From Candidatus Nanopusillus sp. (GTDB lineage Archaea; Nanobdellota; Nanobdellia; Nanobdellales; Nanobdellaceae), in NCBI GenBank assembly GCA_028275775.1, contig JAPWTZ010000001.1, forward strand, positions 30,001 through 62,000: a DNA stretch of 32,000 bases. Reading direction: 5' to 3'. Both the position numbers and the translations under genes were made by a program. This document shows, one piece after another, positions 2,459 to 31,750 of this stretch; position 1 is the first letter of the stretch; the number at the start of each line of letters is the position of its first letter. Below the pieces are notes generated by a model, which made no database searches, was not told where the DNA came from, and worked only from the letters and a program-made list of their open reading frames with translations.

Positions 2459-2634
2459 ACTTTATTATAAAAGGCTGTCCATTTTAGCTTTTTATTATCT
2501 CTCTTCATTTCCCAGTTTCTAATACATTTTCTTGAACAAAAATACAAAATAGTACCATTATTTAATGCATATATAATTCCAGTACCCGGTTCTATTTCAC
2601 TTCCACAATATGAACACTTATTTTTAACAACCAT
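2455..2634 (-). CDS. rpl24e: Ribosomal protein eL24 (L24e)
   Basis: Not in the ORF track (59 aa). My translation: MVVKNKCSYCGSEIEPGTGIIYALNNGTILYFCSRKCIRNWEMKRDNKKLKWTAFYNKV. It has the CxxC...CxxxC zinc-ribbon signature of eL24 and sits in the conserved archaeal rps28e-rpl24e-ndk order. Confidence 0.85.
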   Translation of the reverse strand: MVVKNKCSYCGSEIEPGTGIIYALNNGTILYFCSRKCIRNWEMKRDNKKLKWTAFYNKV

Positions 2635-2636
2635 CT

Positions 2637-2982: not shown

Positions 2983-5900
2983 ATGACATCTGAAAGTTCT
3001 AATTTAAATAATAATAATCAGGAAACAAAAGTTAATAGATTAAGAAAAATATTCTCATGGAATATACTAATAGATGTATTATTAATTATATTTATATTCT
3101 TATTTACTTTAGGATCAAAAGGTTTATTAATGAATTTCTTAGGAAATTTTTCTTTAGTAGGACCAGATGCATATTTAATGTTTAAATATTTTGAATCTTT
3201 AGTATTTAATCATACAGTAAATAGTTTTACATATAATTTAGATTATCCATTACCATTTTACTTATATAATAAAGATCTTGTATCATATTTAGCATTTTTA
3301 TCTTATTTAATGTTCCAGAACTCTGGTAATCAAATTATTACATTATTAAATATTTTACAAATACATCCAGCATCAAATATTATATTATGGTTAGCAGCAG
3401 ACTTTACAAATGCATATGTACCAGCAATTGCATCAATTATATTTTATTTCTTAGCAAAGAATATATTCAAAGATAAATATTTGGCACTTTTCTCTTCTAT
3501 GATTTTTGCAATAAATCCATTTTTAACAACAAGATTAATTTTATTTGATACAGAATTAGGGGCAATTATTTTCCTAGTATTATCTTTCTATCTTATAATT
3601 AAATACTTTAATGCAAAACCTGAGAATAATAGATACAAAAAGTTATTCTTAATTCTTTATTCAATTATTAGCTTGATAATATTTTATAAAACATCTTTAT
3701 TACCAAATCCCGATGTATATTTAACAATTGAATTATTTTTATTTTTCTTTGTCTTACTATTGTTATATCCAATATTCAAAGGTTCAAGAGCATATTATTT
3801 AACATTATTAATATTTACTACTGCATTAACTAGAAAAGGATGGGGTGGATGGATAATAATACCAATTGTATTTGGTTTAACATTATTAATTAGATACTTT
3901 TATGATAGAGATTATAAAGATATATATTTTTACTTACCATATATTGGATTTACAGGAATACTGGATAACTTATTAACACCCGGGGTTTTAGGAATTAATT
4001 TATTCTTAAGTTATCATAATCTATTTTTAGAACTTTCAATGATCTTAATATTTTTATATGAAACATTAAAAGATAATAAAATATTAGAAAAAATTATTGA
4101 AAATAGAGCATATCTATTAATATTATCTATTTTATCTGGATTAATTCCAGGAATACCTATATTCATTATAAATAAATATATTAAAGATAATAAACTACTA
4201 AAGAAATATATAATTTTTCTAATAATCTTAATTATATCTTTACCATTTTTAATTGATAAATTAATTACATCCTTCTTATATAATCCATTTACATATGCTA
4301 GAATGGGCTCTACAATTGCAGAATTTCAGCCAACCACTGCAGGATATTATTTAAGTTTGTTTGGACAAATAGGAGTAATATTAACTTATTTAGGTTTGGG
4401 ATATTTAATATTTGATAAAAATAAATCTAAAAATCTTTTAATATCTCAATTTCTATTTATATTTATATTAACTATATCAGAATTACTCATTGGTCCATCC
4501 ATGTACATTTTAATACTTTATTTATTAATATATTCCGTATTTATAACATCATATAATAAAGAAAACAATAAATATGATTTAATAAAAACAATATTTGAAA
4601 CATTCATGTTATCAATTGCCATTCAATTTATAGTATTTTCAGATTTAGTAATTAGTGGAATATATATAAGTATATTTATATCTTGGATTACTTTTTTAAT
4701 TTTAGTAATCTATATTTCTTTATTTAATAGAAATCTAACTGATGAAGAGATATTTGTATTATCATTATCATTTATAGCACTTATTGTAGGAAAATATATA
4801 TATGAATTGGTTTATTATAATGGTTTAGCTTTTCCATTATTATATATATTTGGCATAGAAATATTTAATTTATTTAAAGATGAATTTTCCAAATTAAAGA
4901 ATATTATAAAAGAAAATTTAATATTAATATTATTATTAATTTCATCTCTTTCTGGAATATCTCTATTTATATCAACAAATATATTCCTTTTCTTAATTCC
5001 ACTGATATTTTTAGCAATATATATTTCATATGAATATATATTAGATAAACATTTAGAACTATTTAATCTATTTAAATATAGTTTAATTTTATTTACAATA
5101 TTTGGTCTTTTATTTTCTACAAGCAATAAAATTTATGGATATCCTGGATATATAATAAACTATTTTTCAAGTGCTGGTCAATATGGAACTCCAAATTATG
5201 AAATAAATACTTTCTTATGGATAAGTCAAAATACTCCACAAAATTCTATTATAAATTCTTGGTGGGATTATGGATATTACATTTATGTATTAGGAAATAG
5301 AACTGCATGGATAAATGGTGCAAATGCATATCCATATTGGAATCATTTAATGGGTAGATATGGTTTATCTTCAGATAATATAACACAAACATTACAATTA
5401 TTCTATGTGCATGCAGATTATAATTACCAAACATTTAAAACATTAGAATTATTTAATGAAAATTCTATATTTTATAATTATTTGTATAAATATTTAGGAT
5501 TCAATAAAAATGAAGTAAATGAAATTGAAAAATTAAAAGATTCCTTAGGATATAAAAATTGGATAAATCTATTATATCAATTTAATGGATCTCTAGAATC
5601 AATTGCTTCATATAATTTATCCCAACAAGATATGGAATTACTAGAAAAATTATATAATATGAATTATTTAAAACCAGCATATTTATATATAGATCCTACA
5701 GATATAGGAAAATCCTTTGCTTTCCAATTTTTAGGATCAAATGAAAGTTATGATAAAGAATCATGGATATCTCAATTTGCATCTGGAACAACAATAAATC
5801 CAGGACCAACAATTCCTTCAATATATTATGATGGATATTATATATTTGCAACAAATAATAGTTTATTCTACTTTGGTCAAGAACCATTAGATCAAGATTT

Positions 5901-6561
5901 AAATATTAATGGAACTATAATAGATAGGTGTATATACGTACAAAACTTGGGTATAATTAACCAAAATAGTTGCGGGATAATAACTGGAGTTCAATTATTA
6001 TTTAATCAATCTATAGTAGAAAGATCTGGAATATATCAAACATTAAATATAGATAATATTAATCCAGATAATTTAATAGGAGCATATGTATATATTTATG
6101 ATCCATTAAATAATCAACAATATGTACTCTCATTAAAATATGTGGATATAGATGGACAATTAGTTACATTTAACAATTCTCAATATGGCGGATTACTATA
6201 TATAACTCCATATTATTCACTATTACAGCAAAACAATCCATTAGGATTATTCTTATATGCATATTTTATATCACAAAAAGCTACCCAATATGATTGGGTA
6301 CAATTATATTTCTTAAATAACAATTATAATGGAACATTTGATCTTGTATTTTATTCAAATTTATTATATGGTCTTCCGCCAATAATATATTATGATATTC
6401 CTCCAGCAAAGGTATGGAAAATTAATTTCCCAGAGAACTTTACAGTTCCAGATTATTTATATTGTATCTATCTAGCAACAAACATTCAACAAATAAATGA
6501 ATGTGGAAAAATATATAATTTGGCCTATTATGAAAATATGAAAAATTATTATGATGTATAA
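2983..6561 (+). CDS. aglB: Archaeal oligosaccharyltransferase AglB (STT3 family), unusually long at 1192 aa
   Basis: Long multi-TM N-terminal region followed by the WWDYG catalytic motif (NSWWDYGYYI, nt 5260..5274, in frame with the start at 2983). A large soluble C-terminal region follows. Confidence 0.9.
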   Translation: MTSESSNLNNNNQETKVNRLRKIFSWNILIDVLLIIFIFLFTLGSKGLLMNFLGNFSLVGPDAYLMFKYFESLVFNHTVNSFTYNLDYPLPFYLYNKDLVSYLAFLSYLMFQNSGNQIITLLNILQIHPASNIILWLAADFTNAYVPAIASIIFYFLAKNIFKDKYLALFSSMIFAINPFLTTRLILFDTELGAIIFLVLSFYLIIKYFNAKPENNRYKKLFLILYSIISLIIFYKTSLLPNPDVYLTIELFLFFFVLLLLYPIFKGSRAYYLTLLIFTTALTRKGWGGWIIIPIVFGLTLLIRYFYDRDYKDIYFYLPYIGFTGILDNLLTPGVLGINLFLSYHNLFLELSMILIFLYETLKDNKILEKIIENRAYLLILSILSGLIPGIPIFIINKYIKDNKLLKKYIIFLIILIISLPFLIDKLITSFLYNPFTYARMGSTIAEFQPTTAGYYLSLFGQIGVILTYLGLGYLIFDKNKSKNLLISQFLFIFILTISELLIGPSMYILILYLLIYSVFITSYNKENNKYDLIKTIFETFMLSIAIQFIVFSDLVISGIYISIFISWITFLILVIYISLFNRNLTDEEIFVLSLSFIALIVGKYIYELVYYNGLAFPLLYIFGIEIFNLFKDEFSKLKNIIKENLILILLLISSLSGISLFISTNIFLFLIPLIFLAIYISYEYILDKHLELFNLFKYSLILFTIFGLLFSTSNKIYGYPGYIINYFSSAGQYGTPNYEINTFLWISQNTPQNSIINSWWDYGYYIYVLGNRTAWINGANAYPYWNHLMGRYGLSSDNITQTLQLFYVHADYNYQTFKTLELFNENSIFYNYLYKYLGFNKNEVNEIEKLKDSLGYKNWINLLYQFNGSLESIASYNLSQQDMELLEKLYNMNYLKPAYLYIDPTDIGKSFAFQFLGSNESYDKESWISQFASGTTINPGPTIPSIYYDGYYIFATNNSLFYFGQEPLDQDLNINGTIIDRCIYVQNLGIINQNSCGIITGVQLLFNQSIVERSGIYQTLNIDNINPDNLIGAYVYIYDPLNNQQYVLSLKYVDIDGQLVTFNNSQYGGLLYITPYYSLLQQNNPLGLFLYAYFISQKATQYDWVQLYFLNNNYNGTFDLVFYSNLLYGLPPIIYYDIPPAKVWKINFPENFTVPDYLYCIYLATNIQQINECGKIYNLAYYENMKNYYDV

Positions 6562-12179: not shown

Positions 12180-12650
12180 TTATAAAAATAATTCATTTAT
12201 TTCATAATAAACTATATTATTTTCTATATCAATTATTGCCAATAAAATTTTATTTAAATTCTTTGAATCCATAAAATTTAAAATATCTTTAATATATAGA
12301 AATTCATTTTCATATATTGGATAAATATAATATAAAATTTTTTCTTTTTTATAATCTGCATATAAAATAATTGAGTCATTTTCTATATCTAAATAATGTC
12401 CTTTATTTCTTAAATCTTCAAACACATAAAATTTCTTCATATTTAATATATTTTTATATTTTTTAATAAAATCTAAAAAGTTGTTTATTCCTTCTAATTT
12501 TATCCATCCTTTTTTTATACAATATAAAGCTTCTTCTGGTTCTAAAATAATATGATCTTTATTCATTTTTCCAATTCTTCCTATTTTATCATAGAATTCT
12601 TTATTTAAAATAAATTTATTATTAAATTCTTTAACTATAATTTTTTCCAT
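12180..12650 (-). CDS. tRNA splicing endonuclease, structural (beta-like) subunit
   Basis: EndA-like fold signature YVFEDLRNKGHYL, but no catalytic His/Lys equivalents. It lies directly downstream of the catalytic subunit gene and overlaps it by 16 nt. Confidence 0.6.
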   Translation of the reverse strand: MEKIIVKEFNNKFILNKEFYDKIGRIGKMNKDHIILEPEEALYCIKKGWIKLEGINNFLDFIKKYKNILNMKKFYVFEDLRNKGHYLDIENDSIILYADYKKEKILYYIYPIYENEFLYIKDILNFMDSKNLNKILLAIIDIENNIVYYEINELFL

Positions 12651-13063
12651 CTTATTTCTAGAAATCTATAGTTATTATTATCCTTTATACAATATAAAAT
12701 TCTTTTTCTAGTACTATGTGCTACTCTATTTTTTGCTAAAAAATCATATATATCTATTTTTTCATTAATATTTATTGGAATAGCAACCCATTTTGAATGT
12801 TCTTCAATATTTTCATATATTCTAAATATACCACCAAATTTTAATCCTGTACCTAAATAATAACCTTTCTCCCTAAAATATTTATATATATCATAATATA
12901 ACTTAATTTTTTCATCTTTTAGGAAATAATTTATATCTAATTTATTATTTTTTTCATCATATACTTCAATTTCATTTTTTTCTAATAAATATAAAACTTC
13001 ATAGAAAAATAAAATCTTATCTTCTGATAAAAATACATTATCTTTATATAATACTCTTTTCAT
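12635..13063 (-). CDS. endA: tRNA splicing endonuclease, catalytic (alpha) subunit, short form
   Basis: YFREKGYYLGTGLKFGGIFRIYENIEEHSKWVAIP (catalytic Tyr and His context) and RVAHSTRKRILYC (catalytic Lys context). Confidence 0.85.
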   Translation of the reverse strand: MKRVLYKDNVFLSEDKILFFYEVLYLLEKNEIEVYDEKNNKLDINYFLKDEKIKLYYDIYKYFREKGYYLGTGLKFGGIFRIYENIEEHSKWVAIPININEKIDIYDFLAKNRVAHSTRKRILYCIKDNNNYRFLEIRWKKL

Positions 13064-15249: not shown

Positions 15250-15867
15250 CTATTGATATGCTTGATAGCCCAAAGAACTACATGAAGAATAACCTGTATA
15301 TGGATTTACAGCACATTGCATTATATCATAATATTGAGTTGGTGGAATTACTACTCTAAATCCCATTTGCAGATTACTTACAGAATAATTTATTGTTGCA
15401 TTTAAACATGGTCCTCCAATAATTGTTAAATTAATATTTGCTACTGAACGTGCTGGTATTACTTGTCCATAACTTAATGTTTCATTATATGTTGTATCAT
15501 ATACAGATTCTGCTATACCAATATTTGCAGCATCAGCTGAACTTTCAAATATTGGAGTTGTACATACTATATCACCATTTGGAGTTGTAAAATCAATAAA
15601 CCATCCCCTTAATGGTATGTCTGTTGGTCCTAGATTATATAATGTAAATGAAACTGTTGCTACACTTCCAAATTCAGAATATTCAACATCATGAATTGTA
15701 AATTCAGGTACTGCAGATTGTTGCTGATTTAATTGCAATTTTGTAATTGAATATCCAGCACTTTTTAAATAAACATCAACAATTATATAAGTACTTATTG
15801 CAGCTAATGCAACCAAAAATATAAAGAAAAAAAGCGATCCAAAGGCTTGTCCTTTCATTTTAGCCAT
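15250..15867 (-). CDS. Class III signal-peptide protein, archaellin-like or FlaF/FlaG-like minor archaellum component
   Basis: MAKMKG|QAFGSLFFFIFLVALAAISTYII followed by a beta-rich domain (TLYNLGPTDIPL). Overlaps the upstream archaellin-like gene by 8 nt. Confidence 0.5.
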   Translation of the reverse strand: MAKMKGQAFGSLFFFIFLVALAAISTYIIVDVYLKSAGYSITKLQLNQQQSAVPEFTIHDVEYSEFGSVATVSFTLYNLGPTDIPLRGWFIDFTTPNGDIVCTTPIFESSADAANIGIAESVYDTTYNETLSYGQVIPARSVANINLTIIGGPCLNATINYSVSNLQMGFRVVIPPTQYYDIMQCAVNPYTGYSSCSSLGYQAYQ

Positions 15868-16453
15868 ATAATATTACTGTTGGATATACTAATGCTGCCG
15901 GTGTTACACCTGATAGATCATATGGTTGTCCATTTGGTGGTATTACAGAGAATTCCCAAATTTGTGATGTTCCTAATGATACATTAGCATATACTAATAG
16001 TGCTGCCAAATCATTTGGTCCCAATACTCCATTATATAGTAATCCTGAATTATCTACCGAATCATGTTGATCAATATAGTAGTATCCTGTATATCCTGTT
16101 ACTAATGAAGAATTTGCTACAGCTCCTCCATATGTAAATACTTCTCTACCAGCTGGAGCATAGAATATTAATGCTGTTTGATTTAATAATATTGGCTGTG
16201 ATCCTGGTGCTAATCTTGTATATACTAAGAACTCTTGTACTGATTGTGATGTTGTATTAACATTTATACCTTCTACTCTTACAATTTCTACAGTTGTACC
16301 AGATGTTTGTACTGTTTGTTGTGCTGCAGCTGCTGCATGTCCTTGTGCACTGGTTGTTGCTCCAATAATTACTAATGCTGCTATTGCTGCTGTCAATGCT
16401 GCTGCTATAAATAATACCATTGCTGAAAAACCAGATCCTCCCTGACCTTTCAT
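15860..16453 (-). CDS. Short archaellin-like protein with class III signal peptide
   Basis: MKG|QGGSGFSAMVLFIAAALTAAIAALVIIGATTSAQGHAAAAAQQTVQTSG aligns with the archaellin N-terminal domain. Ala/Gly/Thr/Val-rich. Confidence 0.7.
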   Translation of the reverse strand: MKGQGGSGFSAMVLFIAAALTAAIAALVIIGATTSAQGHAAAAAQQTVQTSGTTVEIVRVEGINVNTTSQSVQEFLVYTRLAPGSQPILLNQTALIFYAPAGREVFTYGGAVANSSLVTGYTGYYYIDQHDSVDNSGLLYNGVLGPNDLAALLVYANVSLGTSQIWEFSVIPPNGQPYDLSGVTPAALVYPTVILYG

Positions 16454-16510
16454 ACCTTATTAAACACTCTTCCCATTTATATGAATTTGTTAATCAATAA
16501 TGATAACTTT

Positions 16511-18027: not shown

Positions 18028-20340
18028 TTATTTAAATAACCAATTATATATTGTTTTTATATCTTTCTTTATTATTCTCCTAGCCTCAAACTTCTTAACT
18101 TTAAAATAATCAGATATTTTTGCAAAACTCCATGATAATAAAAATTTTCCTATCAATAATTCTTCCTTATCTATTTTTGGCTTATCCTTTTCTGTATATA
18201 ATAAATAATAGATATATAATAATTTTACAATATCAGCAGCAGCTTCATATGTCATAGGTGAAGATAAATAACCTTTTAGTCTTTCTATCTGATTATCTGT
18301 TAAATTCAATTTATAATGTGGTTTAAATTTGTAAGGTGTTTCTAACATTTTTAATATTAGTTCTGGTGATAAATCAAAATATACATCTGATATTTGATTT
18401 ATTAATCTCCATCTAAATTCATAATTTAACTTTTTAACTATTTTTTCTGATTCTTCATTTAGAGGCTTTATTACTATACCAGAATATTCTCCAGAAACCT
18501 TATTTTTTTCTGGAGATAAATGAACTAATACAAAATTATTTTTTTGCCAGAAATTCAATAATTCATAAGTTATACCAAAACTAGAACCAATCCAGTCATA
18601 ATTATTCTCTTTAGCCCAATTATATAATTTATCTAATGCTAAAGATCCCAAACCCATTCCTTGAATTTCAGGTACTGTAGCAATTCTAACAATCCTTAAT
18701 CCCTTTAATTTAGCAAATTCCTTTATTCTATAATGTTTTACTATTATATCTGGTATTATGTTTCCTTTTGGTTTATAATCTTTTAACATTTTATTAATTG
18801 TATCCTCATCTATACCACCTTCATATGCAATATGTATTCCATTTACAATCTTTCCATTTGATAATTCTAAAACAAAAGCATCATGATGTGGTGCATCAGC
18901 AAGCATTGCTATATCATTTGGTTTATTTTGATAATGTGCTAAAACATATATTCCAACGAAATTCTTTAATTTTGGATCATCATTATAAAACCATTCTTTC
19001 ATTGGTATTTTATAAAATCTTACATCTTTATTTTTTATTAATTCTTTATCACTCTCGTTAATTTCCGAAACTTCAGAATCTAATAATAATGTATCGTATA
19101 ACCATTTTTCAATTGGATCTCCTTCATTATATCTAATTGGTTCAATCATATTATATTTATATATCTTAAAATCTTTCAGAGAATTTAGATATTTCAAAAA
19201 TTTGACAGAAAAAGATCTGCCAGCACCTTCATATCCATGAATTGTAGAAGAAAATACAATTTTATCATATTTTTTAGTATATTCCAATAATATATTTATA
19301 CCAATACCTGCAGCTTCATCAACAAACAATATATCATATTTTTTTCCCAATATTTCAGATGGCTTTCTATATTCAATATATATTTTATTGTTTATTGCTA
19401 TTTTTCTCTCACTTATTTCTTTATATTTTATATTATTCTTATTTAATCCCAACTTTAAGAATTCAAATAGAGTTTCTACATTATTAAATTCTGGAGATGT
19501 TATACCTATATCATATACTTTTTTACTATTTAATAATATTTCTGAAATTCCAGAAATTACCAAACCAAGAGAAGCACTTTTTCCTCTTCCTCTATCTGCA
19601 ATAATTAAATATATTGATTTTTCATCATTTAACAAATTTTCTAAAAGAGAAAGAACATTTACCTGATCTTGTGTTAAACATAATTTATATATTCTATCTG
19701 AAAACTTTCTATTATCTGGCAATAATATTTTCTTTCTTCCAGGCGGATATGCTTCTTCCAATACACATTCATCATTTATTCCTTTTATTAATCCTTTTTC
19801 TATATCATATATAATTATATTATCATACTGAAGTAATTTATTCTTGAATCTATGTTCAAAATATTTTTTTACATCTTCCAATTTATATGGGGGAGTTAAT
19901 AAATGTTCATGAAAGGTTGTATAATTTTCTTCAAAATGTTCAAAATCTTTAATTAAGAAAAACGCAATGCCCATTCCAGATAAAGTTTCAATAATTCTAC
20001 CTATATAATCTGGGGTTAGAGATTTGTACATATCTAAAATTAATATATCATATGTTTTTCCCAAAATTTCTTTAGAATCTTTATATTTAATTTTTTCTAT
20101 ATCTAAAAAATCTACCTTTTCTTTTAATTTTTGAAATCTATATAAATAATCTCCATTAAAATCTTCAGAGATATATAAAATCTTTATATTATTTTTAAAA
20201 TTCTTAATTCTTTCATAATATATTTTTAATAAATTAGATAATATATCAAAATAATCTTTACCTGATAAAACAACAATTCCTCTATGGTTATTTCTAATTA
20301 TTTTACATAATAACCTATTATAATCATTCAATATATCCAT
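18028..20340 (-). CDS. tmcA: RNA cytidine N4-acetyltransferase TmcA / Nat10 homologue
   Basis: Helicase-type P-loop ADRGRGKSASLGL, DEAA-like FVDEAAGI, and GNAT acetyl-CoA motif RIVRIATVPEIQGMGLGSLAL. Size of 770 aa and domain order match TmcA/Nat10. Confidence 0.9.
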   Translation of the reverse strand: MDILNDYNRLLCKIIRNNHRGIVVLSGKDYFDILSNLLKIYYERIKNFKNNIKILYISEDFNGDYLYRFQKLKEKVDFLDIEKIKYKDSKEILGKTYDILILDMYKSLTPDYIGRIIETLSGMGIAFFLIKDFEHFEENYTTFHEHLLTPPYKLEDVKKYFEHRFKNKLLQYDNIIIYDIEKGLIKGINDECVLEEAYPPGRKKILLPDNRKFSDRIYKLCLTQDQVNVLSLLENLLNDEKSIYLIIADRGRGKSASLGLVISGISEILLNSKKVYDIGITSPEFNNVETLFEFLKLGLNKNNIKYKEISERKIAINNKIYIEYRKPSEILGKKYDILFVDEAAGIGINILLEYTKKYDKIVFSSTIHGYEGAGRSFSVKFLKYLNSLKDFKIYKYNMIEPIRYNEGDPIEKWLYDTLLLDSEVSEINESDKELIKNKDVRFYKIPMKEWFYNDDPKLKNFVGIYVLAHYQNKPNDIAMLADAPHHDAFVLELSNGKIVNGIHIAYEGGIDEDTINKMLKDYKPKGNIIPDIIVKHYRIKEFAKLKGLRIVRIATVPEIQGMGLGSLALDKLYNWAKENNYDWIGSSFGITYELLNFWQKNNFVLVHLSPEKNKVSGEYSGIVIKPLNEESEKIVKKLNYEFRWRLINQISDVYFDLSPELILKMLETPYKFKPHYKLNLTDNQIERLKGYLSSPMTYEAAADIVKLLYIYYLLYTEKDKPKIDKEELLIGKFLLSWSFAKISDYFKVKKFEARRIIKKDIKTIYNWLFK

Positions 20341-20383
20341 ATATAAAATATTAACTAATTACTTATAACTGTTTTTAGAAAGA

Positions 20384-20528
20384 TGTTAACCTATTGTTAA
20401 CATTTTGTTAAAGAAATATTAAATTGCGTTAAAACATTAAAACACCTTGTTAATAGGATATTAAATAACAGATAAATGTTAATTAAATGATGTTAAAATG
20501 TTAATCATATATGTTAAATAAATGTTAA
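20384..20528 (+). repeat. Array of ten direct (A)TGTTAA boxes: nine exact TGTTAA and one CGTTAA
   Basis: Box starts are at 20384, 20395, 20406, 20427 (CGTTAA), 20448, 20477, 20491, 20499, 20512 and 20523. Eight of the ten fall on a lattice of about 10.7 bp. Boxes 1 and 2 extend to palindromic GTTAAC / TGTTAACA. Confidence 0.85.
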
Positions 20529-20529
20529 A

Positions 20530-22302
20530 TTAAAGTAAATAATATCTTAATTTCATATCAAGTGATTTTAATAATTTTTGATCATCTACAAAAACTATAG
20601 ATAATCCTTTAGATATTCCTCCAGAATATAATCTAGAAGTTCTTCCAGAAGCCTGTAAATATGTTTTAAGATCTACAATATTTAAATATATATTTTTATT
20701 TTCATCTATTTCTATAGAAACATCCGGATTTTCTTTTAATTTATCTAATATTTCTTGTCTATCAAGATAAATTTTCAAAATATTATACAGTGTTAATATA
20801 TCATCAGCAAAAGACTTTAAGTATCCGACCAATTCAACATTATTTCCATTTAAAAAGTCAGAAATTAACTTTAAATCTCCAGAAGACATTTTTTTCATAT
20901 TTTTTCTCAATCTTGTAAGAATCTTTGTTATTTTATCTTTTTCTATCTCCGATATATAAGGTAAAATTAAGTTAGATAAGATAATTATGTTCATTATATT
21001 TTTCTCAAGATTTTTTATATTTATCTTTATCTTTGGTATACCCAAAAATATTGCATATTTTATTCTTTCAGGCATATTAATTCCTCTTGTTAATATCCCA
21101 TATGGATCTGTAATACTAATTAAGAAATTTATTTTTCCTTCATAAAAATCATTTAATATATTTTCAATTTCTTTTGTTTTTGTTTTTGAATATATTAAAC
21201 CAACTTTTACATTATTTGATATTAAATAATTATAAATTTCTTTCATATATTCTATTCCTTTCTCTTTTGGAACAAATATTAATGCTCCATCCTCCAACTC
21301 TTTTAATAAATTCAATAATTCTTCTTTTATATCTTTCTTAGGAATATAATATACATCTATAACATTTCTAATCTTTGAACTTCCAGTTCCAATAGTAAAG
21401 TTGGCTAGTTCTTTATATAATCTGACTCTTTTTCCCCTTAAACTACCAGTAGCTGAAGATAAAACAATTATTCCATGATTTTTATTTTTGATTTCTAAAA
21501 ACCTTTTATATAAATCACTATTAAAATCTAATTTACCAGCCAATTTTAGATCTATTATTTTTTTAGCAATATTTATATCATCTTCATTATAACCAATTAA
21601 AATAAATAGTTTTTCAATATTTTTTGATCCTTTAAAGAATGAATCTACATCATCTACAAAAGCAATATCAAATTTTTTATCCTTTAATATTTCAAAATTT
21701 TTAGTTAAAAATTGGTTTGAAATAATTAATATGTTAAATTCATCACTCTTTATTTTTTCTTTAATTTCTTTTTTATTACCACCATAATATGCTATAAACT
21801 TTATATTTAGATTTAGACTACTTATAAATTTATCAAATAAATCACTAAATTGTTTTACAAGTAATCTTGTAGGTAATATTATTATTATCTTTTTATTGTA
21901 TTGACTAGAAAAGTAGATAGATGAAATTATAATAAATGTTGATTTTCCAACACCCGTTGGTGCTATCATAGAGAAACTATTGTTCTTATATAATCTAATA
22001 AACCACATTATTTGTACTTTCCATGGATCAGAATTTAATATTTTTTTAAAAAAATCAGAAAATTTATTAATCTCTTTATATAAATTATAAATATTTGAAT
22101 AATCTTTTAATTTTCCTTTTTCAGATAATTTTTTATATAGAAGTTCCCTAAAATTGCTTTCATCCTTTATATTTAATAATTCTAATATATCATTATCATC
22201 TAGATCATTTTCACATGGAAGACCATTTGAAAGTCTATAAGAAGAAATTATACCATTACAATTAAAACATAAATTTTTTATATATAAAGGAATGTATTCC
22301 AT
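20530..22302 (-). CDS. rgy: Reverse gyrase, N-terminal helicase-like subunit only (split reverse gyrase)
   Basis: N-terminal Cys zinc-finger region (CFNCNG...PCEN), Walker A APTGVGKST, motif II FVDDVDS, SATG, and motif VI YLQASGRTSRLYSGGISKGLSIVFVDD. The ORF stops about 35 aa after motif VI, where the Toprim/topoisomerase IA part would begin. Confidence 0.85.
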   Translation of the reverse strand: MEYIPLYIKNLCFNCNGIISSYRLSNGLPCENDLDDNDILELLNIKDESNFRELLYKKLSEKGKLKDYSNIYNLYKEINKFSDFFKKILNSDPWKVQIMWFIRLYKNNSFSMIAPTGVGKSTFIIISSIYFSSQYNKKIIIILPTRLLVKQFSDLFDKFISSLNLNIKFIAYYGGNKKEIKEKIKSDEFNILIISNQFLTKNFEILKDKKFDIAFVDDVDSFFKGSKNIEKLFILIGYNEDDINIAKKIIDLKLAGKLDFNSDLYKRFLEIKNKNHGIIVLSSATGSLRGKRVRLYKELANFTIGTGSSKIRNVIDVYYIPKKDIKEELLNLLKELEDGALIFVPKEKGIEYMKEIYNYLISNNVKVGLIYSKTKTKEIENILNDFYEGKINFLISITDPYGILTRGINMPERIKYAIFLGIPKIKINIKNLEKNIMNIIILSNLILPYISEIEKDKITKILTRLRKNMKKMSSGDLKLISDFLNGNNVELVGYLKSFADDILTLYNILKIYLDRQEILDKLKENPDVSIEIDENKNIYLNIVDLKTYLQASGRTSRLYSGGISKGLSIVFVDDQKLLKSLDMKLRYYLL

Positions 22303-22343: not shown

Positions 22344-22943
22344 ATGGATATATCAGATATAATTACCTACTTACAAAAAGAAAAAGAGAAGAAAACATTA
22401 CAAAATTTACAAAAAGATTTCTATGTTAAAGTATCAGAATTATTAAAAAAGTATAAAAAACAATTAGAAGCATATAAATCTGATAGTAAAGAATATAGAG
22501 AAATTATTGCAACAATGGATAGACTAAAAGAAACATTATCAGAATTGATAAATATAAGAATTAGCAAAATAATAAATAATACATTATTAGAAGTTAAAGA
22601 AGATTTAAATATAATATCGGAAGATTTTTTAGAAGAAGAAGAAAAATTATTATATTCTCTTATAAAGAAGATATTAAAGTCATACAAAGAAAATATACAA
22701 AATAAGATTATTAATGGAGAAGAAATAGATATTAATAAATTTTTTTCAGATATAAACATAAATATTTCATTATATCAAAATAAAATAGATAAAAAGATTG
22801 TTATTATTAAAAATCAATTACCAAAGATTGTTGGACCAAATGGAAAAATATATGGACCTTTTAAAGTTGGAGATATAATAATATTAAATAATAACTTTGC
22901 TGAGAAACTAGAAAACACCGGAATAGGAAAAATAATTAATTAA
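22344..22943 (+). CDS. GINS complex subunit, Gins51(Gins15)-like
   Basis: Helical N-terminal domain (LQNLQKDFYVKVSELL...LINIRISKIIN) and a small C-terminal beta domain (IVGPNGKIYGPFKVGDIIILNNNFAEKLENTGIGKII). This is the A-then-B domain order of Gins51. Assigned by pattern memory only. Confidence 0.6.
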   Translation: MDISDIITYLQKEKEKKTLQNLQKDFYVKVSELLKKYKKQLEAYKSDSKEYREIIATMDRLKETLSELINIRISKIINNTLLEVKEDLNIISEDFLEEEEKLLYSLIKKILKSYKENIQNKIINGEEIDINKFFSDININISLYQNKIDKKIVIIKNQLPKIVGPNGKIYGPFKVGDIIILNNNFAEKLENTGIGKIIN

Positions 22944-25549: not shown

Positions 25550-26524
25550 TTAAGTTTTAGTTATTGGAATATTATATATATTTTCTTCATAACAATTATA
25601 TGAAAGGTTCATTAGAACATATGCTGGTATTTCTAAATTTGAATTTAATAAACTTTGAATTTCTGGATTATTTTGTGCTAATTGTTGTATATTTATACTA
25701 CATGATATTGTAGATGAATTTATTGGAACATTTTGTGTTGGTGTACATGAGAAACCTCCAACTCCATTTGGTATATTTATTTGATTTGCCGCAATAATAT
25801 CCAATTCTGCATTTACATTAAAAGTAGCTTGACTATTAGAATATACATTGCTAAAACATCCAACAGAATCTTGGAAAGATATTGAAAAATATATATTTCC
25901 GTTAGTTTCATTTACGTTAATAGTAGAAGATACTGGCGTTATTGGAGATGACGAATAATATACAGGTTCACTTAGTGTTATTTGACTATTAGAATAATTT
26001 AATTGTAATGGAATTAATATATTAGTAACAACATTTGATATATTATATTCTACAACAATTGGTATTTGAGTAGGTACTATTTGAAGACCTGGACTTAGAG
26101 AAACTTCAATATTTCCAATAGTAGAATTTGAAGGAATAAGTTGATTAGAAGAAGAATTATAAGTTGGCGGTTCTGCATTAAAATTACCTGAGTAAGGAGA
26201 AGATAAAGCATAACTATAAATATAATATGAAACTTCTAGTTGAGTATTTGACATTGTATAAATATTGTTAACATAAATAACAGGTAAATTATAATTTAAA
26301 CCACTTGATTCACTATAATTTAATGAAGAAGGAGCTTGAATATATAAATATACGTTTCCAGGCTGATTTAATGCCCATGAGGGTTGATATAAATTGGAAT
26401 TTCCCATATTAAAAAATCCTAAATTTCCAGATCCAATATTACCAATTGGACATGTAGAAAAATAAAATAGAGTAGTACCTGTAAATAATATTGGTAACAA
26501 ATATACAAATCTGCCCGACTTCAT
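25550..26524 (-). CDS. Hypothetical secreted/surface protein, Asn/Ser/Tyr/Thr-rich and sequon-dense
   Basis: N-terminal hydrophobic signal MKSGRFVYLLPILFTGTTLFYFSTC. I count at least eight N-x-S/T sequons (NYS, NSS, NST, NIS, NYS, NET, NSS, NLS). Almost no Lys or Glu. No family recognised. Confidence 0.5.
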   Translation of the reverse strand: MKSGRFVYLLPILFTGTTLFYFSTCPIGNIGSGNLGFFNMGNSNLYQPSWALNQPGNVYLYIQAPSSLNYSESSGLNYNLPVIYVNNIYTMSNTQLEVSYYIYSYALSSPYSGNFNAEPPTYNSSSNQLIPSNSTIGNIEVSLSPGLQIVPTQIPIVVEYNISNVVTNILIPLQLNYSNSQITLSEPVYYSSSPITPVSSTINVNETNGNIYFSISFQDSVGCFSNVYSNSQATFNVNAELDIIAANQINIPNGVGGFSCTPTQNVPINSSTISCSINIQQLAQNNPEIQSLLNSNLEIPAYVLMNLSYNCYEENIYNIPITKT

Positions 26525-27037: not shown

Positions 27038-28096
27038 TTAGGATATCTGTAAATAATCTATTTTAAGATAATTGTCTGTCTTTATCTCTAATAGATTCTC
27101 TGGCAATAAACAATTATATATATTTATCGCATATGCTCCAACAGATGAACTTATGTTATATATACAATTATTATTTAGTATAACTTCTCCAGAACCCTGA
27201 CCAACTACTATATCCAATATATAGTTTGTTAAATTATTTGGAAATGCTATATAAAATATATTGCTCTCCGATTCTATATATAGATTATTTATATTAACTG
27301 GATAAGATGATATTAGACTAATTGTATTTTCTCCAACATTTAAATATGGGGTTAAATAAAATAAATTAGAACATGAAGATAAAGGAATTGATAATCCATT
27401 TACAATCAATTCTACATTTTGAGGAGAATATGGACAAAAATCATAAAACATATATACATCTCCAGATATATAATAATAGTTAAAATTTAATGATGAAAAT
27501 TTTAGATAATTTATATTTATATTATTCAATATCCCATTCCCATTAAATATTATACTAGTTGGAGAAAATACTATTTTTAACTCATTATCTCCATTATATA
27601 AATAATTTGGAGAAACAAAGATACTTATTTCACCATTTTGGCATCCAGAATATAATTCATAATTATTTACATATATTGTAAATTTTCCATTATTACATGT
27701 AGAATATGCAGTAATATTTACTCCATTATAATTATTAGAATAATAGAAATACAAACTTTTGCTAACCGTTCCATAAAATATATTTGTTTCAAAATTCAAA
27801 GTCCCTAAATTAATATAATATACGGGAATATAACTTCCTATTGTATAATTACTCGCTATATAATAATAATTTTGACTTTTTGATAATTGTATATTTTGAA
27901 AAACATATTGTTTACTTATACTTATACTTATATTTGAAATATTTGAAGGAAAAAATAATGACATATTAGTTCCATTAATTAATTGTTGTAATACATATTG
28001 TTTATATTGATATGGAAGAAGTACCCAGTATATAAAAATTACTATACCTAATAATATAAAGAATATACCCAAACCTGTTGTTTGCAATTTTTTCAT
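27038..28096 (-). CDS. Hypothetical N-terminally anchored surface protein, Asn/Tyr/Ser/Ile-rich and sequon-dense
   Basis: MKKLQTTGLGIFFILLGIVIFIYWVLL anchor. I count at least eight sequons (NGT, NMS, NIS x3, NYT, NIT, NLT). Several Cys pairs. No family recognised. Confidence 0.5.
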   Translation of the reverse strand: MKKLQTTGLGIFFILLGIVIFIYWVLLPYQYKQYVLQQLINGTNMSLFFPSNISNISISISKQYVFQNIQLSKSQNYYYIASNYTIGSYIPVYYINLGTLNFETNIFYGTVSKSLYFYYSNNYNGVNITAYSTCNNGKFTIYVNNYELYSGCQNGEISIFVSPNYLYNGDNELKIVFSPTSIIFNGNGILNNININYLKFSSLNFNYYYISGDVYMFYDFCPYSPQNVELIVNGLSIPLSSCSNLFYLTPYLNVGENTISLISSYPVNINNLYIESESNIFYIAFPNNLTNYILDIVVGQGSGEVILNNNCIYNISSSVGAYAINIYNCLLPENLLEIKTDNYLKIDYLQIS

Positions 28097-30236: not shown

Positions 30237-30593
30237 ATGCCATTAATAATACCATCCCCAGAATATGCTAAAAGAAGGAAATTATTACAAATCAATAATA
30301 AAATTAAAAAATTAGAGAAGGAGGGAAGTGGAAAAATAACTTTGGTATTAAAGAAGGAAATAGATCTAAATAATGTTGACGAATCTTTAAAATTTGTATC
30401 AATGTTAAAAGAATTGGAAGGAAGAAACTTCTTTGATGAATTATACATTGTTAAATCTGATAAGGTGTTTGATTATTTGGATATAGAAAAAGGATTAAAT
30501 CAAAAAAGCATAGATAAAGAAAAACTAATAAAATTATATGATATAATAAGTAGACTTTCTGATATAATAAATAAAATTAAAAAAATCTATTAG
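30237..30593 (+). CDS. Hypothetical small charged protein
   Basis: ORF track. Lys/Glu-rich helical composition typical of this proteome. Preferred over the overlapping antisense ORF 30218..30448, which is low complexity. No family recognised. Confidence 0.45.
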   Translation: MPLIIPSPEYAKRRKLLQINNKIKKLEKEGSGKITLVLKKEIDLNNVDESLKFVSMLKELEGRNFFDELYIVKSDKVFDYLDIEKGLNQKSIDKEKLIKLYDIISRLSDIINKIKKIY

Positions 30594-31750
30594 TATTTAT
30601 ATTCTTCCTCTTTTATATTTTTAGGTAACAATAATCTCTTTATATTTTCTATATCATTCTCTAATATTTTTATTTTTTCTATTTCATTTATTATATATTC
30701 AAAATTGGCTAAATCAATAAAATTCTCTATTTTCTTTATTTTATTCATTAAATTTTCATAATCTGACAATACAGATTCTAATATATCTTTAGAATCATAA
30801 AGTTCTGCTTTTACTTTTCTTATTTCTTCCTTAATATTATTTAAACCTTCCTCTAATTTACTATATTTTTCATTAATTTCCTCAACTTTATCCATTTCAT
30901 TTATTCTAGATCTTAAGTCTACAACTAAATTATTTAATTCTTCAAATAATGCATATATGCTATTTAATCTGTTTTCGAAGTTTATGTACTTGTTATATAA
31001 TTCTTCATAAGCTCTAAATTGTTTTATATTTTTAATATCATCATTTGTTAATTGCAATAAATAATTCATATTATTTATTTTATTATTGATTTCAGAATAT
31101 TTTTCTTCATATTTCTTTTCTATTTCTTCTAATTTACTATTAATATTATATAGATCTTTTTCTTTTATCTCATTTATCATTTCAGATATTTTATTGTATT
31201 GTAATAGATCTTTAGATAAGTTATCTATTGTTTTAGATATTAAATTTGCTAAATTATCTACTTTTGCTTTTAGATCATTAAAATCATTAATATTTGTATA
31301 TGAATCTTCTACTTTATTTAACCTATCTATTAACTCTTCTATTTTATTTCTTAATTCTTTTATACTATTTATAGAATCCTCATATTTTGTTATTTTATTA
31401 CTTAGAGAATTTATATCAAGTTCTAATTTATTTATTTTCGATTTTATATTTACTATAGCAGAATAATCAACAAAGTTTTTCTGATTATTTTCTAATACAT
31501 CTACTTTTAATTTTAAGTCATTTAAATATCTTACTTTATCTAATAAATCTTCATTTAGTATTTCTTTATAATTATTTAATATTTTTTCTACATTTTTTAA
31601 TTCTTCTTTCAAAGCTTTTAACTGATTATTAAATTCTTCTTTATCTACAAAATTATTTAAGCTTCTTTTTATTTCAGATATTTTATTATTAAAATTTTTT
31701 ACATAGGAGAAAAATTCATCAATTAGCTCTGAATCTTTACTTAAATCCAT
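30590..31750 (-). CDS. Hypothetical long coiled-coil protein
   Basis: ORF track. 386 aa of almost uninterrupted heptad-like Lys/Glu/Asn/Leu/Ile sequence (for example LKALKEELKNVEKILNNYKEIL and IKELRNKIEELIDRLNKVED). No TM helix and no enzymatic motif. Confidence 0.6.
   Translation of the reverse strand: MDLSKDSELIDEFFSYVKNFNNKISEIKRSLNNFVDKEEFNNQLKALKEELKNVEKILNNYKEILNEDLLDKVRYLNDLKLKVDVLENNQKNFVDYSAIVNIKSKINKLELDINSLSNKITKYEDSINSIKELRNKIEELIDRLNKVEDSYTNINDFNDLKAKVDNLANLISKTIDNLSKDLLQYNKISEMINEIKEKDLYNINSKLEEIEKKYEEKYSEINNKINNMNYLLQLTNDDIKNIKQFRAYEELYNKYINFENRLNSIYALFEELNNLVVDLRSRINEMDKVEEINEKYSKLEEGLNNIKEEIRKVKAELYDSKDILESVLSDYENLMNKIKKIENFIDLANFEYIINEIEKIKILENDIENIKRLLLPKNIKEEEYKY

Follow-up and report, generated by a model that had tools for sequence, protein, structure and literature searches.

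In this work we analysed a 32-kb stretch of DNA from a hot-spring archaeon, Candidatus Nanopusillus sp. (family Nanopusillaceae, phylum Nanoarchaeota/Nanobdellota; contig JAPWTZ010000001.1, positions 30,001 to 62,000; hereafter the window, 22% GC). We focused on the non-coding spacer between rgyN, the gene for the helicase-like half of a split reverse gyrase, and tmcA, the gene for a tRNA/RNA cytidine acetyltransferase. The two genes are read from the minus strand, and the spacer therefore lies 3' of rgyN and 5' of tmcA. A first-pass annotation, made from the letters of the window alone, had named these two genes and a GINS gene nearby; the Pfam domains that we found uphold the three identities, the last one being GINS51 at 22344. 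The window TmcA shares 95% identity with its counterpart in Ca. Nanopusillus acidilobi 7A and 94% with the one in Ca. Nanobsidianus stetteri, and the window rgyN is 93% identical to rgyN of Ca. N. stetteri.

The same annotation had described in the spacer ten short boxes repeated in one orientation. By pattern search we found exact TGTTAA on the plus strand at 20384, 20395, 20406, 20448, 20477, 20491, 20499, 20512 and 20523 and a CGTTAA variant at 20427, that is, the same ten boxes at offsets of 0, 11, 22, 43, 64, 93, 107, 115, 128 and 139 bp. The degenerate NNTTAA sites at 20417, 20459 and 20481 were also recovered, as were the two palindromes (GTTAAC at 20385-20390 and TGTTAACA at 20395-20402), and an additional degenerate site, CATTAA, was detected at 20435. 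Since both flanking genes are on the minus strand, the box reads TTAACA in the transcribed sense, and this orientation is used in what follows (Table 1). The position of box 10, next to the rgyN stop codon, is kept in nearly all Nanopusillus relatives.

Table 1. Coordinates of the rgyN-tmcA spacer, its flanking genes, its sites and comparable boxes elsewhere (window positions unless a contig is named; boxes are given in the transcribed sense; BRE, transcription factor B recognition element)
Feature	Position	Strand	Description
tmcA	18028..20340	(-)	tRNA/RNA cytidine acetyltransferase, 770 aa; Pfam TmcA_N, NAT10_TcmA_helicase, GNAT_acetyltr_2
rgyN	20530..22302	(-)	Helicase-like half of split reverse gyrase, 590 aa; Pfam zf_Rg, DEAD, Helicase_C
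rgyN-tmcA intergenic spacer	20341..20529	(-)	189 bp, delimited by the open reading frames; array 20384-20528 and core promoter 20341-20376
tmcA core promoter	20361..20376	(-)	TATA TTATAAGT at 20361-20368 (-28 to -21 from ATG); A-rich aaaaacag at the BRE position, 20369-20376
13-bp insertion ataggTTAACAtc	20382..20394	(-)	In the window only; carries box 1 (20384-20389)
Box 2, TTAACA	20395..20400	(-)	TTAATA or TTAACA in relatives
Box 3, TTAACA	20406..20411	(-)	On-lattice
Degenerate lattice site, TTAATA	20417..20422	(-)	
Box 4, TTAACG variant	20427..20432	(-)	On-lattice; A/G switches between strains
Degenerate site, TTAATG	20435..20440	(-)	Inside the highly conserved stretch TTTTAATGTTTTAAC
Box 5, TTAACA	20448..20453	(-)	On-lattice
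Degenerate lattice site, TTAATA	20459..20464	(-)	TTAA core invariant among relatives
Box 6, TTAACA	20477..20486	(-)	Off-lattice, -0.31 turn; overlaps an on-lattice TTAA (AATTAA 20481-20486)
Box 7, TTAACA	20491..20496	(-)	On-lattice half of an 8-bp doublet
Box 8, TTAACA	20499..20504	(-)	Off-lattice, -0.25 turn; in the 8-bp doublet TTAACA-NN-TTAACA
Box 9, TTAACA	20512..20517	(-)	On-lattice
Box 10, TTAACA	20523..20528	(-)	On-lattice; directly 3' of the rgyN stop (TAA-t-TTAACA)
Single archaellin-promoter box, TTAACA	16488..16493	(-)	Sense orientation; just upstream of the BRE/TATA (TATAAAT 16475-16481) of the archaellin gene 15860-16453
Phage TTAACA array	L121 7040-7190		IMG/VR viral contig
Phage TTAACA array	L039 11560-11720		IMG/VR viral contig
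Phage TTAACA array	L066 4340-4540		IMG/VR viral contig
Phage TTAACA array	L097 260-370		IMG/VR viral contig

We observed that this array is non-random and helically phased. Among window hexamers with at least three different letters, TGTTAA forms the top cluster with 9 copies in 150 bp, the runner-up having 6. A comparison with a Markov background had been proposed for the whole genome; run on the whole 32-kb window (200 simulations each at order 1 and order 3), it gave a simulated maximum of 6-7 for any hexamer, with a mean of 4.2 over the 400 simulations, below the observed 9. In the rest of the window TGTTAA occurs about 0.16 times per 189 bp, both strands together, and the only other copy located in a spacer is, as reported at first, the one at 16488. 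For the phasing of the boxes, a Rayleigh R of 0.81 was obtained at 10.6 bp, and 8 of the 10 boxes are at most 0.06 turn from a lattice of 10.7 bp, in agreement with the first description. The probability of such phasing by chance is about 0.002 when helical periods alone (10-11.2 bp) are considered and about 0.03 for any period of 7-15 bp. When TTAA phasing was scanned with a sliding window, the spacer gave the top Rayleigh-Z peak of the 32 kb, and it was the single strongest in each 12-32 kb locus examined, which indicates that the periodicity is not genome-wide. No extension of the lattice into the flanking coding DNA was seen: it ends at both gene boundaries, and the array is thus a real feature confined to the non-coding gap. 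Between neighbouring TTAA sites, a spacing of 11 bp is the most frequent (31 cases), followed by 8 bp (14), 13 bp (11) and 10 bp (9). Spacings of 8 and 13 bp sum to two-turn doublets, to which both off-lattice boxes belong, and the 8-bp doublet TTAACA-NN-TTAACA of boxes 7 and 8 is kept in relatives and in loci L002, L003 and L156.

The tmcA gene has a recognisable core promoter of its own. The stretch aaaaacagTTATAAGT, at -36 to -21 from the tmcA ATG, is conserved in relatives and fits the promoter pattern of the window, 'aaacTTATAAAT' at about -30; the promoters of the window have the form 'aaac-TTATAAAT', some 23-30 nt ahead of the start codon. Counted from the tmcA ATG, the array occupies -44 to -188; it lies wholly upstream of this promoter, stopping about 15 bp short of the TATA. 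In archaea, activators usually bind upstream of the core promoter while repressors overlap the promoter or the transcription start (PMC5512572); the array is thus found where archaeal activators bind. This position upstream of a TATA backs the operator array, one of the functions for which the spacer had been proposed as a candidate.

Orthologous loci were collected by scanning genome contigs and metagenome contigs. In all Nanopusillaceae loci retrieved, the gene order eIF2a, Nop10, PAC2, (MJ0538, L44e, GINS51), rgyN, spacer, tmcA is kept, and each of the more than 20 orthologous spacers (167-307 bp) carries a TTAA lattice, including those of Ca. Nanopusillus acidilobi, Ca. Nanobsidianus stetteri, Nanobdella, Nanoclepta and a YN1-type genome. 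Fitted lineage by lineage, the period always came out at 10.5-10.9 bp (10.7-10.8 bp when pooled), p being below about 0.01 throughout; R even reaches 0.92 and 0.95 in the most distant array lineages. The helical phase is kept in independent lineages, down to 63% TmcA identity, where the inter-site sequence is unrelated. In addition, the same distances from a box to the tmcA ATG (about 48, 59, 70, 80, 112, 144, 152 and 176) recur across lineages in which inter-box DNA is unalignable.

Such an alignment had been suggested as a check on the conservation of both box number and phasing. Phasing stood in all these spacers; box number did not, with 2 to 11 boxes. Nanopusillus strains have 2-9 TTAACA and 13-16 TTAA per spacer; TTAACA occurs 9 times in L002 and 8 times in L003, and the YN1-type complete genome AP031373.1 (L156) has 11 TTAACA and 30 TTAA in 307 bp. 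In the spacer of Nanobdella aerobiophila the sites are of the form TTTAAY, and in Nanoclepta-type lineages (L005, L006/L128) they are bare TTAA with flanks of mixed orientation. Across the array series, we thus counted 2-11 TTAACA hexamers and 9-30 TTAA cores. The hexamer fades with evolutionary distance and the helical lattice persists; the conserved unit is the TTAA core on its lattice and not the full hexamer, the trailing CA being clade-specific.

Outside of the array-bearing lineages, the locus is organised differently. In a more distant nanoarchaeon, GCA_053994055.1 (L129 6755-6760; rgyN 48% identical), tmcA is found 4 bp after rgyN, with no spacer and no array. The tight pairing of the two genes thus predates the array-bearing spacer, and spacer, promoter and array, which behave together, seem to have entered as a single module between two genes that were originally close together. 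In GCA_964573185.1, tmcA is at another locus, behind a 29-bp gap, and downstream of the most distant split rgyN (39% identical) there is neither tmcA nor an array. Separately, in the metagenome contig Ga0074075_19632 (L146), from 1526, stop codons break the tmcA frame after about 25 codons and the spacer before it has 27 bp more; the gene is either a pseudogene or wrongly assembled or sequenced. The array is at about 0.59 of the record length in L149 (CP010514.1, N. acidilobi) and L004 (AP019769.1, Nanobdella) and at about 0.04 in L156, which is uninformative.

To measure selection on the sites, 14 distinct close-strain spacers were aligned and the mean pairwise difference was calculated for each class of columns, with the four-fold degenerate sites of tmcA in the same strains as neutral reference (0.217). 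The TTAA core columns gave 0.069, 83% of them being invariant, positions 5-6 ("CA") 0.196, and the inter-box columns 0.276, or 0.252 with A/T-consensus columns only; the tmcA core promoter columns gave 0.108. The difference between TTAA cores and inter-box columns is significant even against A/T-consensus columns only (Mann-Whitney p = 6e-8). The cores therefore evolve about three times slower than four-fold degenerate sites while the inter-box DNA is neutral, which indicates purifying selection on the cores, stronger than that on the promoter. Beside the core, C is found at position 5 in 10/15, 14/19 and 12/16 TTAA sites of three diverged lineages whose genomes have 22-26% GC, which shows a long-term but loose maintenance. 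By offset from the core, the GC fraction is 0.75 at offset 4 and 0.11-0.18 at offsets 6-8. This peak, located beside the core and not half a turn away, is as expected for a base-specific and directional recognition.

These values bear on the simplest explanation, in which the array is a neutral by-product, namely an 11-bp minisatellite born by replication slippage in AT-rich non-coding DNA and now decaying, its period being only the length of the unit. The 13-bp insertion that carries box 1 would fit with such a process. It is a gap in 13/13 of the other close spacers (14 unique ones aligned) and in the named genomes, and it is a recent gain of one array unit. This extra unit, found only in the window, shows that arrays grow by unit duplication, and the array is reshaped as units of about 11-13 bp are gained and lost. 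In addition, Tandem Repeats Finder reported 11-bp periods with 64-88% matches, the TTAACA count is variable (2 to 11), and pure 11-bp TTAACA tandem repeats exist in phage contigs. However, neutrality is very unlikely given that the cores are threefold more conserved than four-fold degenerate sites between neutral inter-box columns, and that the lattice persists where inter-site sequences share no similarity. Moreover, about 170-307 bp are retained at this spacer in DNA that is only about 5% non-coding, and the period of 10.6-10.7 bp is built from mixed spacings of 10, 11, 21 and 32 bp, not from a strict 11 bp.

We give an even chance to the interpretation that the spacer is a cis-acting, cooperative protein-binding array on one face of the helix, serving the tmcA promoter as upstream operator or activating array. 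Each turn of the helix (about 10.7 bp) has one TTAA-core site, 13-16 in all or 30 in one lineage, and most of the sites therefore lie on the same side of the duplex. In Nanopusillus, YN1 and KM4331 the site has been sharpened into the directional hexamer TTAACA. A candidate DNA-binding protein would fill the sites cooperatively, reading successive grooves on this face, and the resulting nucleoprotein scaffold of 140-250 bp would extend from the rgyN stop codon to about 15 bp upstream of the tmcA TATA. Such a scaffold may modulate the tmcA promoter, as an upstream operator or as an activating array, and would probably also be a barrier that uncouples tmcA from rgyN read-through and separates the two transcription units. 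Protein binding, the identity of the binder and the direction of the effect on tmcA are what we infer from this layout. Among the interpretations first proposed for the spacer, cooperative binding is the best supported, by the selection on the cores, the conserved helical phase, the directional G/C beside the core and the presence of the hexamer at a second promoter, described below; of the others, origin, curvature and Phr-like operator did not hold. As binders, a TrmBL2-like, a winged helix-turn-helix (wHTH), a ribbon-helix-helix (RHH) or an AbrB-type factor are only candidates; the abundance of TrmBL2 in N. acidilobi, described below, speaks for this interpretation too.

A structural or chromatin element could also account for the array without any dedicated factor, which we consider doubtful. 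Phased TpA steps would ease the bending of DNA in one direction, and this would position or nucleate an abundant chromatin protein (histone hypernucleosome, Alba or TrmBL2 filament) that sets a chromatin boundary beside the tmcA promoter. The deepest conserved feature is indeed a palindromic TTAA core on a helical lattice and not the directional hexamer, and the flanks have no orientation in L005/L006. Moreover, TA steps at each helical turn in TTAAA/TTTAA contexts are classic histone rotational positioning signals, for example in Widom 601, and the spacer resembles Widom 601 and the sequences selected in vitro by archaeal histones (SELEX) in having TTAA/TTTAA-type TpA steps once per turn over about 150 bp. 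The resemblance does not extend to the period: nucleosomal periods of 10.0-10.2 bp fit poorly, with a summed Z of 6-10 vs 35 at the optimum of 10.7-10.8 bp. Neither is there any G/C enrichment half a turn from the TpA step, and a histone rotational positioning sequence was rejected on these two grounds. Flexibility would not call for the strong, directional C that three lineages have at position 5, and the hexamer at the archaellin promoter points to a specific reader. Regarding TrmBL2 (TK0471 in Thermococcales), this cooperative, filament-forming wHTH protein is both a chromatin protein and a repressor (PMC4877046), and it is highly abundant in N. equitans and N. acidilobi (PMC4935971). By inserting its wHTH into adjacent major grooves it makes one contact per helical turn. 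In contrast, its binding is largely non-specific and its known motif is the Thermococcales glycolytic motif, TGM (TATCAC-N5-GTGATA), not TTAA(CA); its tie to the spacer is that of a candidate only.

The second promoter is that of the archaellin gene. The non-coding DNA of the window amounts to 1,630 bp (about 5%), and the 1,441 bp outside the spacer contain two TTAACR boxes, among them the single TTAACA just upstream of the archaellin BRE/TATA (Table 1). A further site, TTATCA at 16501-16506, is TTAACA in other strains. At the archaellin promoter, N. acidilobi, N. stetteri, L002, L156 and L005 also have TTAACA in this place, and a second box is often found 13 bp further upstream. When the close-strain loci L001 and L148-L153 were compared, two haplotypes were observed, TTATCA...TTAACA and TTAACA...TTAGCA, with the two positions 13 bp apart, and both boxes are present in the archaellin promoters of L002 and L005. 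This reciprocal exchange of boxes is an apparent binding-site turnover. The hexamer common to the tmcA array and the archaellin promoter suggests a small regulon.

Archaellum promoters are the target of a known system of the same kind. EarA, in Methanococcus maripaludis and in Thermococcales, binds four 6-bp boxes immediately upstream of the archaellum BRE, the first one 9-11 bp from it (PMC5512572, PMC10665913), with the consensus TACATA (PMC10665913). As in the Nanopusillaceae, including at their archaellin promoter, short 6-bp boxes are repeated upstream of BRE/TATA in an AT-rich genome. However, the box differs (TACATA vs TTAACA), and so does the number, four vs 10-14 plus degenerate sites over 140-250 bp in the spacer. 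The target of EarA is the archaellum operon whereas the main target here is tmcA, and EarA sites have not been described as strictly phased with the helix over more than 13 turns. The gene of EarA is usually found beside the archaellum cluster; no EarA homolog was detected by Pfam and NCBIfam scans among the open reading frames (ORFs) of the window, including those beside the archaellum genes.

Direct repeats at helical spacing also raise the question of a chromosome-level site, either an iteron-like replication origin or a centromere-like partition site bound by a segregation adaptor in the manner of the 11-bp repeats of plasmid parC/ParR. In plasmid R1 parC/ParR, omega heptads and ParG boxes, RHH adaptors cooperatively form a nucleoprotein scaffold that also represses the promoter. 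The spacer shares with them many short direct repeats about 11 bp apart, on one face and beside a promoter (R = 0.81 at 10.6 bp, with 11-bp spacing dominant). One such array is found per 12-32 kb locus examined, and the GINS gene is 1.8 kb away. Comparable TTAACA arrays also exist in phage contigs, where, among the matches listed (IMG/VR), 6-8 TTAACA boxes are set at 11-bp spacing with variable inter-box sequence (Table 1); the L121 array comes directly after a parS-like palindrome, TGTTCCACGTGAAACC. The ORFs that neighbour the phage arrays gave no informative Pfam match, and the occurrence of such arrays in phages indicates that the design principle is widespread.

A chromosome-level site is nevertheless quite unlikely. 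Archaeal origins usually adjoin orc1/cdc6 and carry dyad-containing elements in inverted orientation on either side of an exceptionally AT-rich unwinding element. Pfam and NCBIfam scans and the gene lists of relatives revealed no orc1/cdc6, ParA, ParB, SegA or SegB gene in the 32-kb window or its flanks, and no Rep, ParA, ParM, ParR or ParB-like gene was found in the window or the syntenic loci. The ten boxes are 6 bp long in one orientation, with no dyad of the origin recognition box type (ORB or mini-ORB). The spacer is 83% AT vs 90-98% in the other window spacers, so that there is no unwinding element, and within the 32 kb the GC skew tracks the coding strand with no switch at the spacer. 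Furthermore, a related lineage does without the spacer despite a syntenic neighbourhood, and box number varies from 2 to 11 among strains. The origin or iteron first proposed for the spacer was thus abandoned as the main reading, and the centromere-like site found no support, with no par genes nearby. The parC/ParR-type sites are plasmid-borne, stand beside their own par genes and have unrelated repeats, whereas the array occupies a chromosomal spacer between housekeeping genes.

The array could also act in the rgyN-tmcA co-transcript, where (UUAACA)n, in the 3' untranslated region or leader, would recruit an RNA-binding protein or direct processing or termination. In the Nanopusillus clade every hexamer is on the transcribed strand, the first box adjoins the rgyN stop codon and no strong oligo-T terminator follows rgyN. 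We regard this possibility as most improbable, since a DNA-helical period in every lineage has no rationale for single-stranded RNA, the core is palindromic with mixed flanks in L005/L006, and tmcA has its own TATA at -28, downstream of the array. Moreover, the RNA fold of the spacer is not more stable than that of shuffled sequences (z = -0.9), and Rfam gave no match to the spacer at the gathering threshold or at E up to 10. As to coding, no ORF of at least 20 aa was found in the spacer.

Two other suggestions of the first-pass annotation were not confirmed. An intrinsically curved promoter region had been envisaged, but a dinucleotide wedge model predicted 21 degrees per 31 bp for the spacer vs a window median of 19, the 66th percentile, a model result only; the controls A4T4N2 and T4A4N2 gave 80 degrees per 31 bp and 3.5 degrees, respectively. 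The TAAC-N5-GTTA core formed by boxes 1 and 2 had been likened to that of the Pyrococcus Phr heat-shock operator. This core exists in the window alone, through the 13-bp insertion, and is absent from the 13 other aligned strains and the named genomes (20+ relatives), which makes it incidental; its place, -44 to -66, is also clear of the promoter and the transcription start.

Several observations weigh against the array as an upstream protein-binding element of tmcA, even though this remains our preferred interpretation. Positions 5-6 are near-neutral between close strains (0.196 vs 0.217). No regulator or DNA-binding family was recognised among the window ORFs, unannotated ones included, by Pfam and NCBIfam scans. 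The turnover at the archaellin promoter is known from two haplotypes only. In L005/L006, the spacer lattice is bare and its flanks mixed, though the L005 archaellin promoter holds TTAACA, and a single TTAACA-reading factor cannot therefore explain the deepest conserved layer. The array may therefore be double: an old TTAA lattice that is structural or binds a chromatin protein, and over it factor sites specific to a clade. Finally, most strains have a lattice-to-TATA phase of -0.01 turn, the window one of +0.20 and N. acidilobi one of -0.19; this drift of +/-0.2 turn among strains argues against a strict face-of-helix contact with the basal machinery, and a strict phase coupling of lattice and TATA was rejected.

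The lattice repeat itself leads to another proposal. From the way in which DNA untwists on heating, the helical repeat of relaxed DNA at 70-85 C is estimated to be close to that of the lattice (10.6-10.9 bp), unlike that at 25 C. On the basis of this match, and of the place of the array between the gene of a reverse-gyrase subunit and tmcA, the array might be a sensor of DNA geometry, whose sites would align on one face and be occupied cooperatively only at a particular temperature and superhelical density, thereby coupling tmcA to temperature and DNA topology. We consider this unlikely. In a variant of the same idea, TTAA could be a methylation site, the cluster working like SeqA-GATC clusters.

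Whichever the binder, short directional boxes set head to tail ahead of a promoter, one every 10-11 bp, have bacterial counterparts in the pho boxes (OmpR/PhoB, wHTH) and the MraZ boxes (ring-forming AbrB-like protein), which are read on one DNA face; these have 2-4 units vs 13-30 here, and no TTAA core. The architecture is thus of a known kind, that of phased short-repeat arrays for cooperative binding, but it fails the defining tests of each family considered, and our literature searches retrieved no description of this element.

Other features of the window were noted. An apparent 178-bp spacer with unusually high GC (2459-2636, minus strand), between S28e (2637-2930) and NDK (1865-2458), is a small unlisted gene for the zinc-ribbon ribosomal protein L24e, of about 58 aa (MVVKNKCSYCGSEIEPGTG...). 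Two adjacent and overlapping minus-strand genes, 12180-12650 and 12635-13063, both match tRNA-intron endonuclease domains (N-terminal/Sen15-like and catalytic), and their pairing suggests a heteromeric splicing endonuclease. No Pfam or NCBIfam match was obtained for the ORFs 2983-6561, 25550-26524, 27038-28096, 1234-1896 and 30237-30593, one of which encodes 1,192 aa; that at 27038-28096 is Asn/Tyr/Ile-rich with an N-terminal hydrophobic segment and is possibly a surface protein. The minus-strand gene 30590-31750, on the border of the archaellum/pilus gene neighbourhood, encodes a 386-aa coiled-coil protein with weak, sub-threshold matches to SMC/Rad50 coiled-coil regions and to an archaea-specific SMC-related protein. 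The second-largest hexamer cluster of the window (TGCTGC/GCTGCT, 5-6 times at 16322-16345) is coding, inside the archaellin gene.

Nanopusillaceae are obligate ectosymbionts with genomes of about 600 kb, and to our knowledge almost nothing is known of their gene regulation. With only about 5% of the window non-coding, a conserved element of about 170-307 bp is a conspicuous investment. It is a defined sequence present in the cultivated Ca. Nanopusillus acidilobi and Nanobdella aerobiophila, and hence an experimental entry point: the spacer could serve as bait for a sequence-specific regulator or chromatin organiser, which would be the first of the phylum. The product of tmcA introduces N4-acetylcytidine (ac4C) in RNA, a modification linked to growth at high temperature, and the array allows one to ask whether tmcA is under a control that the reverse-gyrase gene does not share. 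With their conserved lattice and diverged flanks, the arrays of the different lineages are in addition a natural data set on what helically phased arrays need in order to work. If the geometry sensor proved true, a thermoprotective RNA acetyltransferase would be tied to temperature and DNA topology in an organism that has very few regulators.

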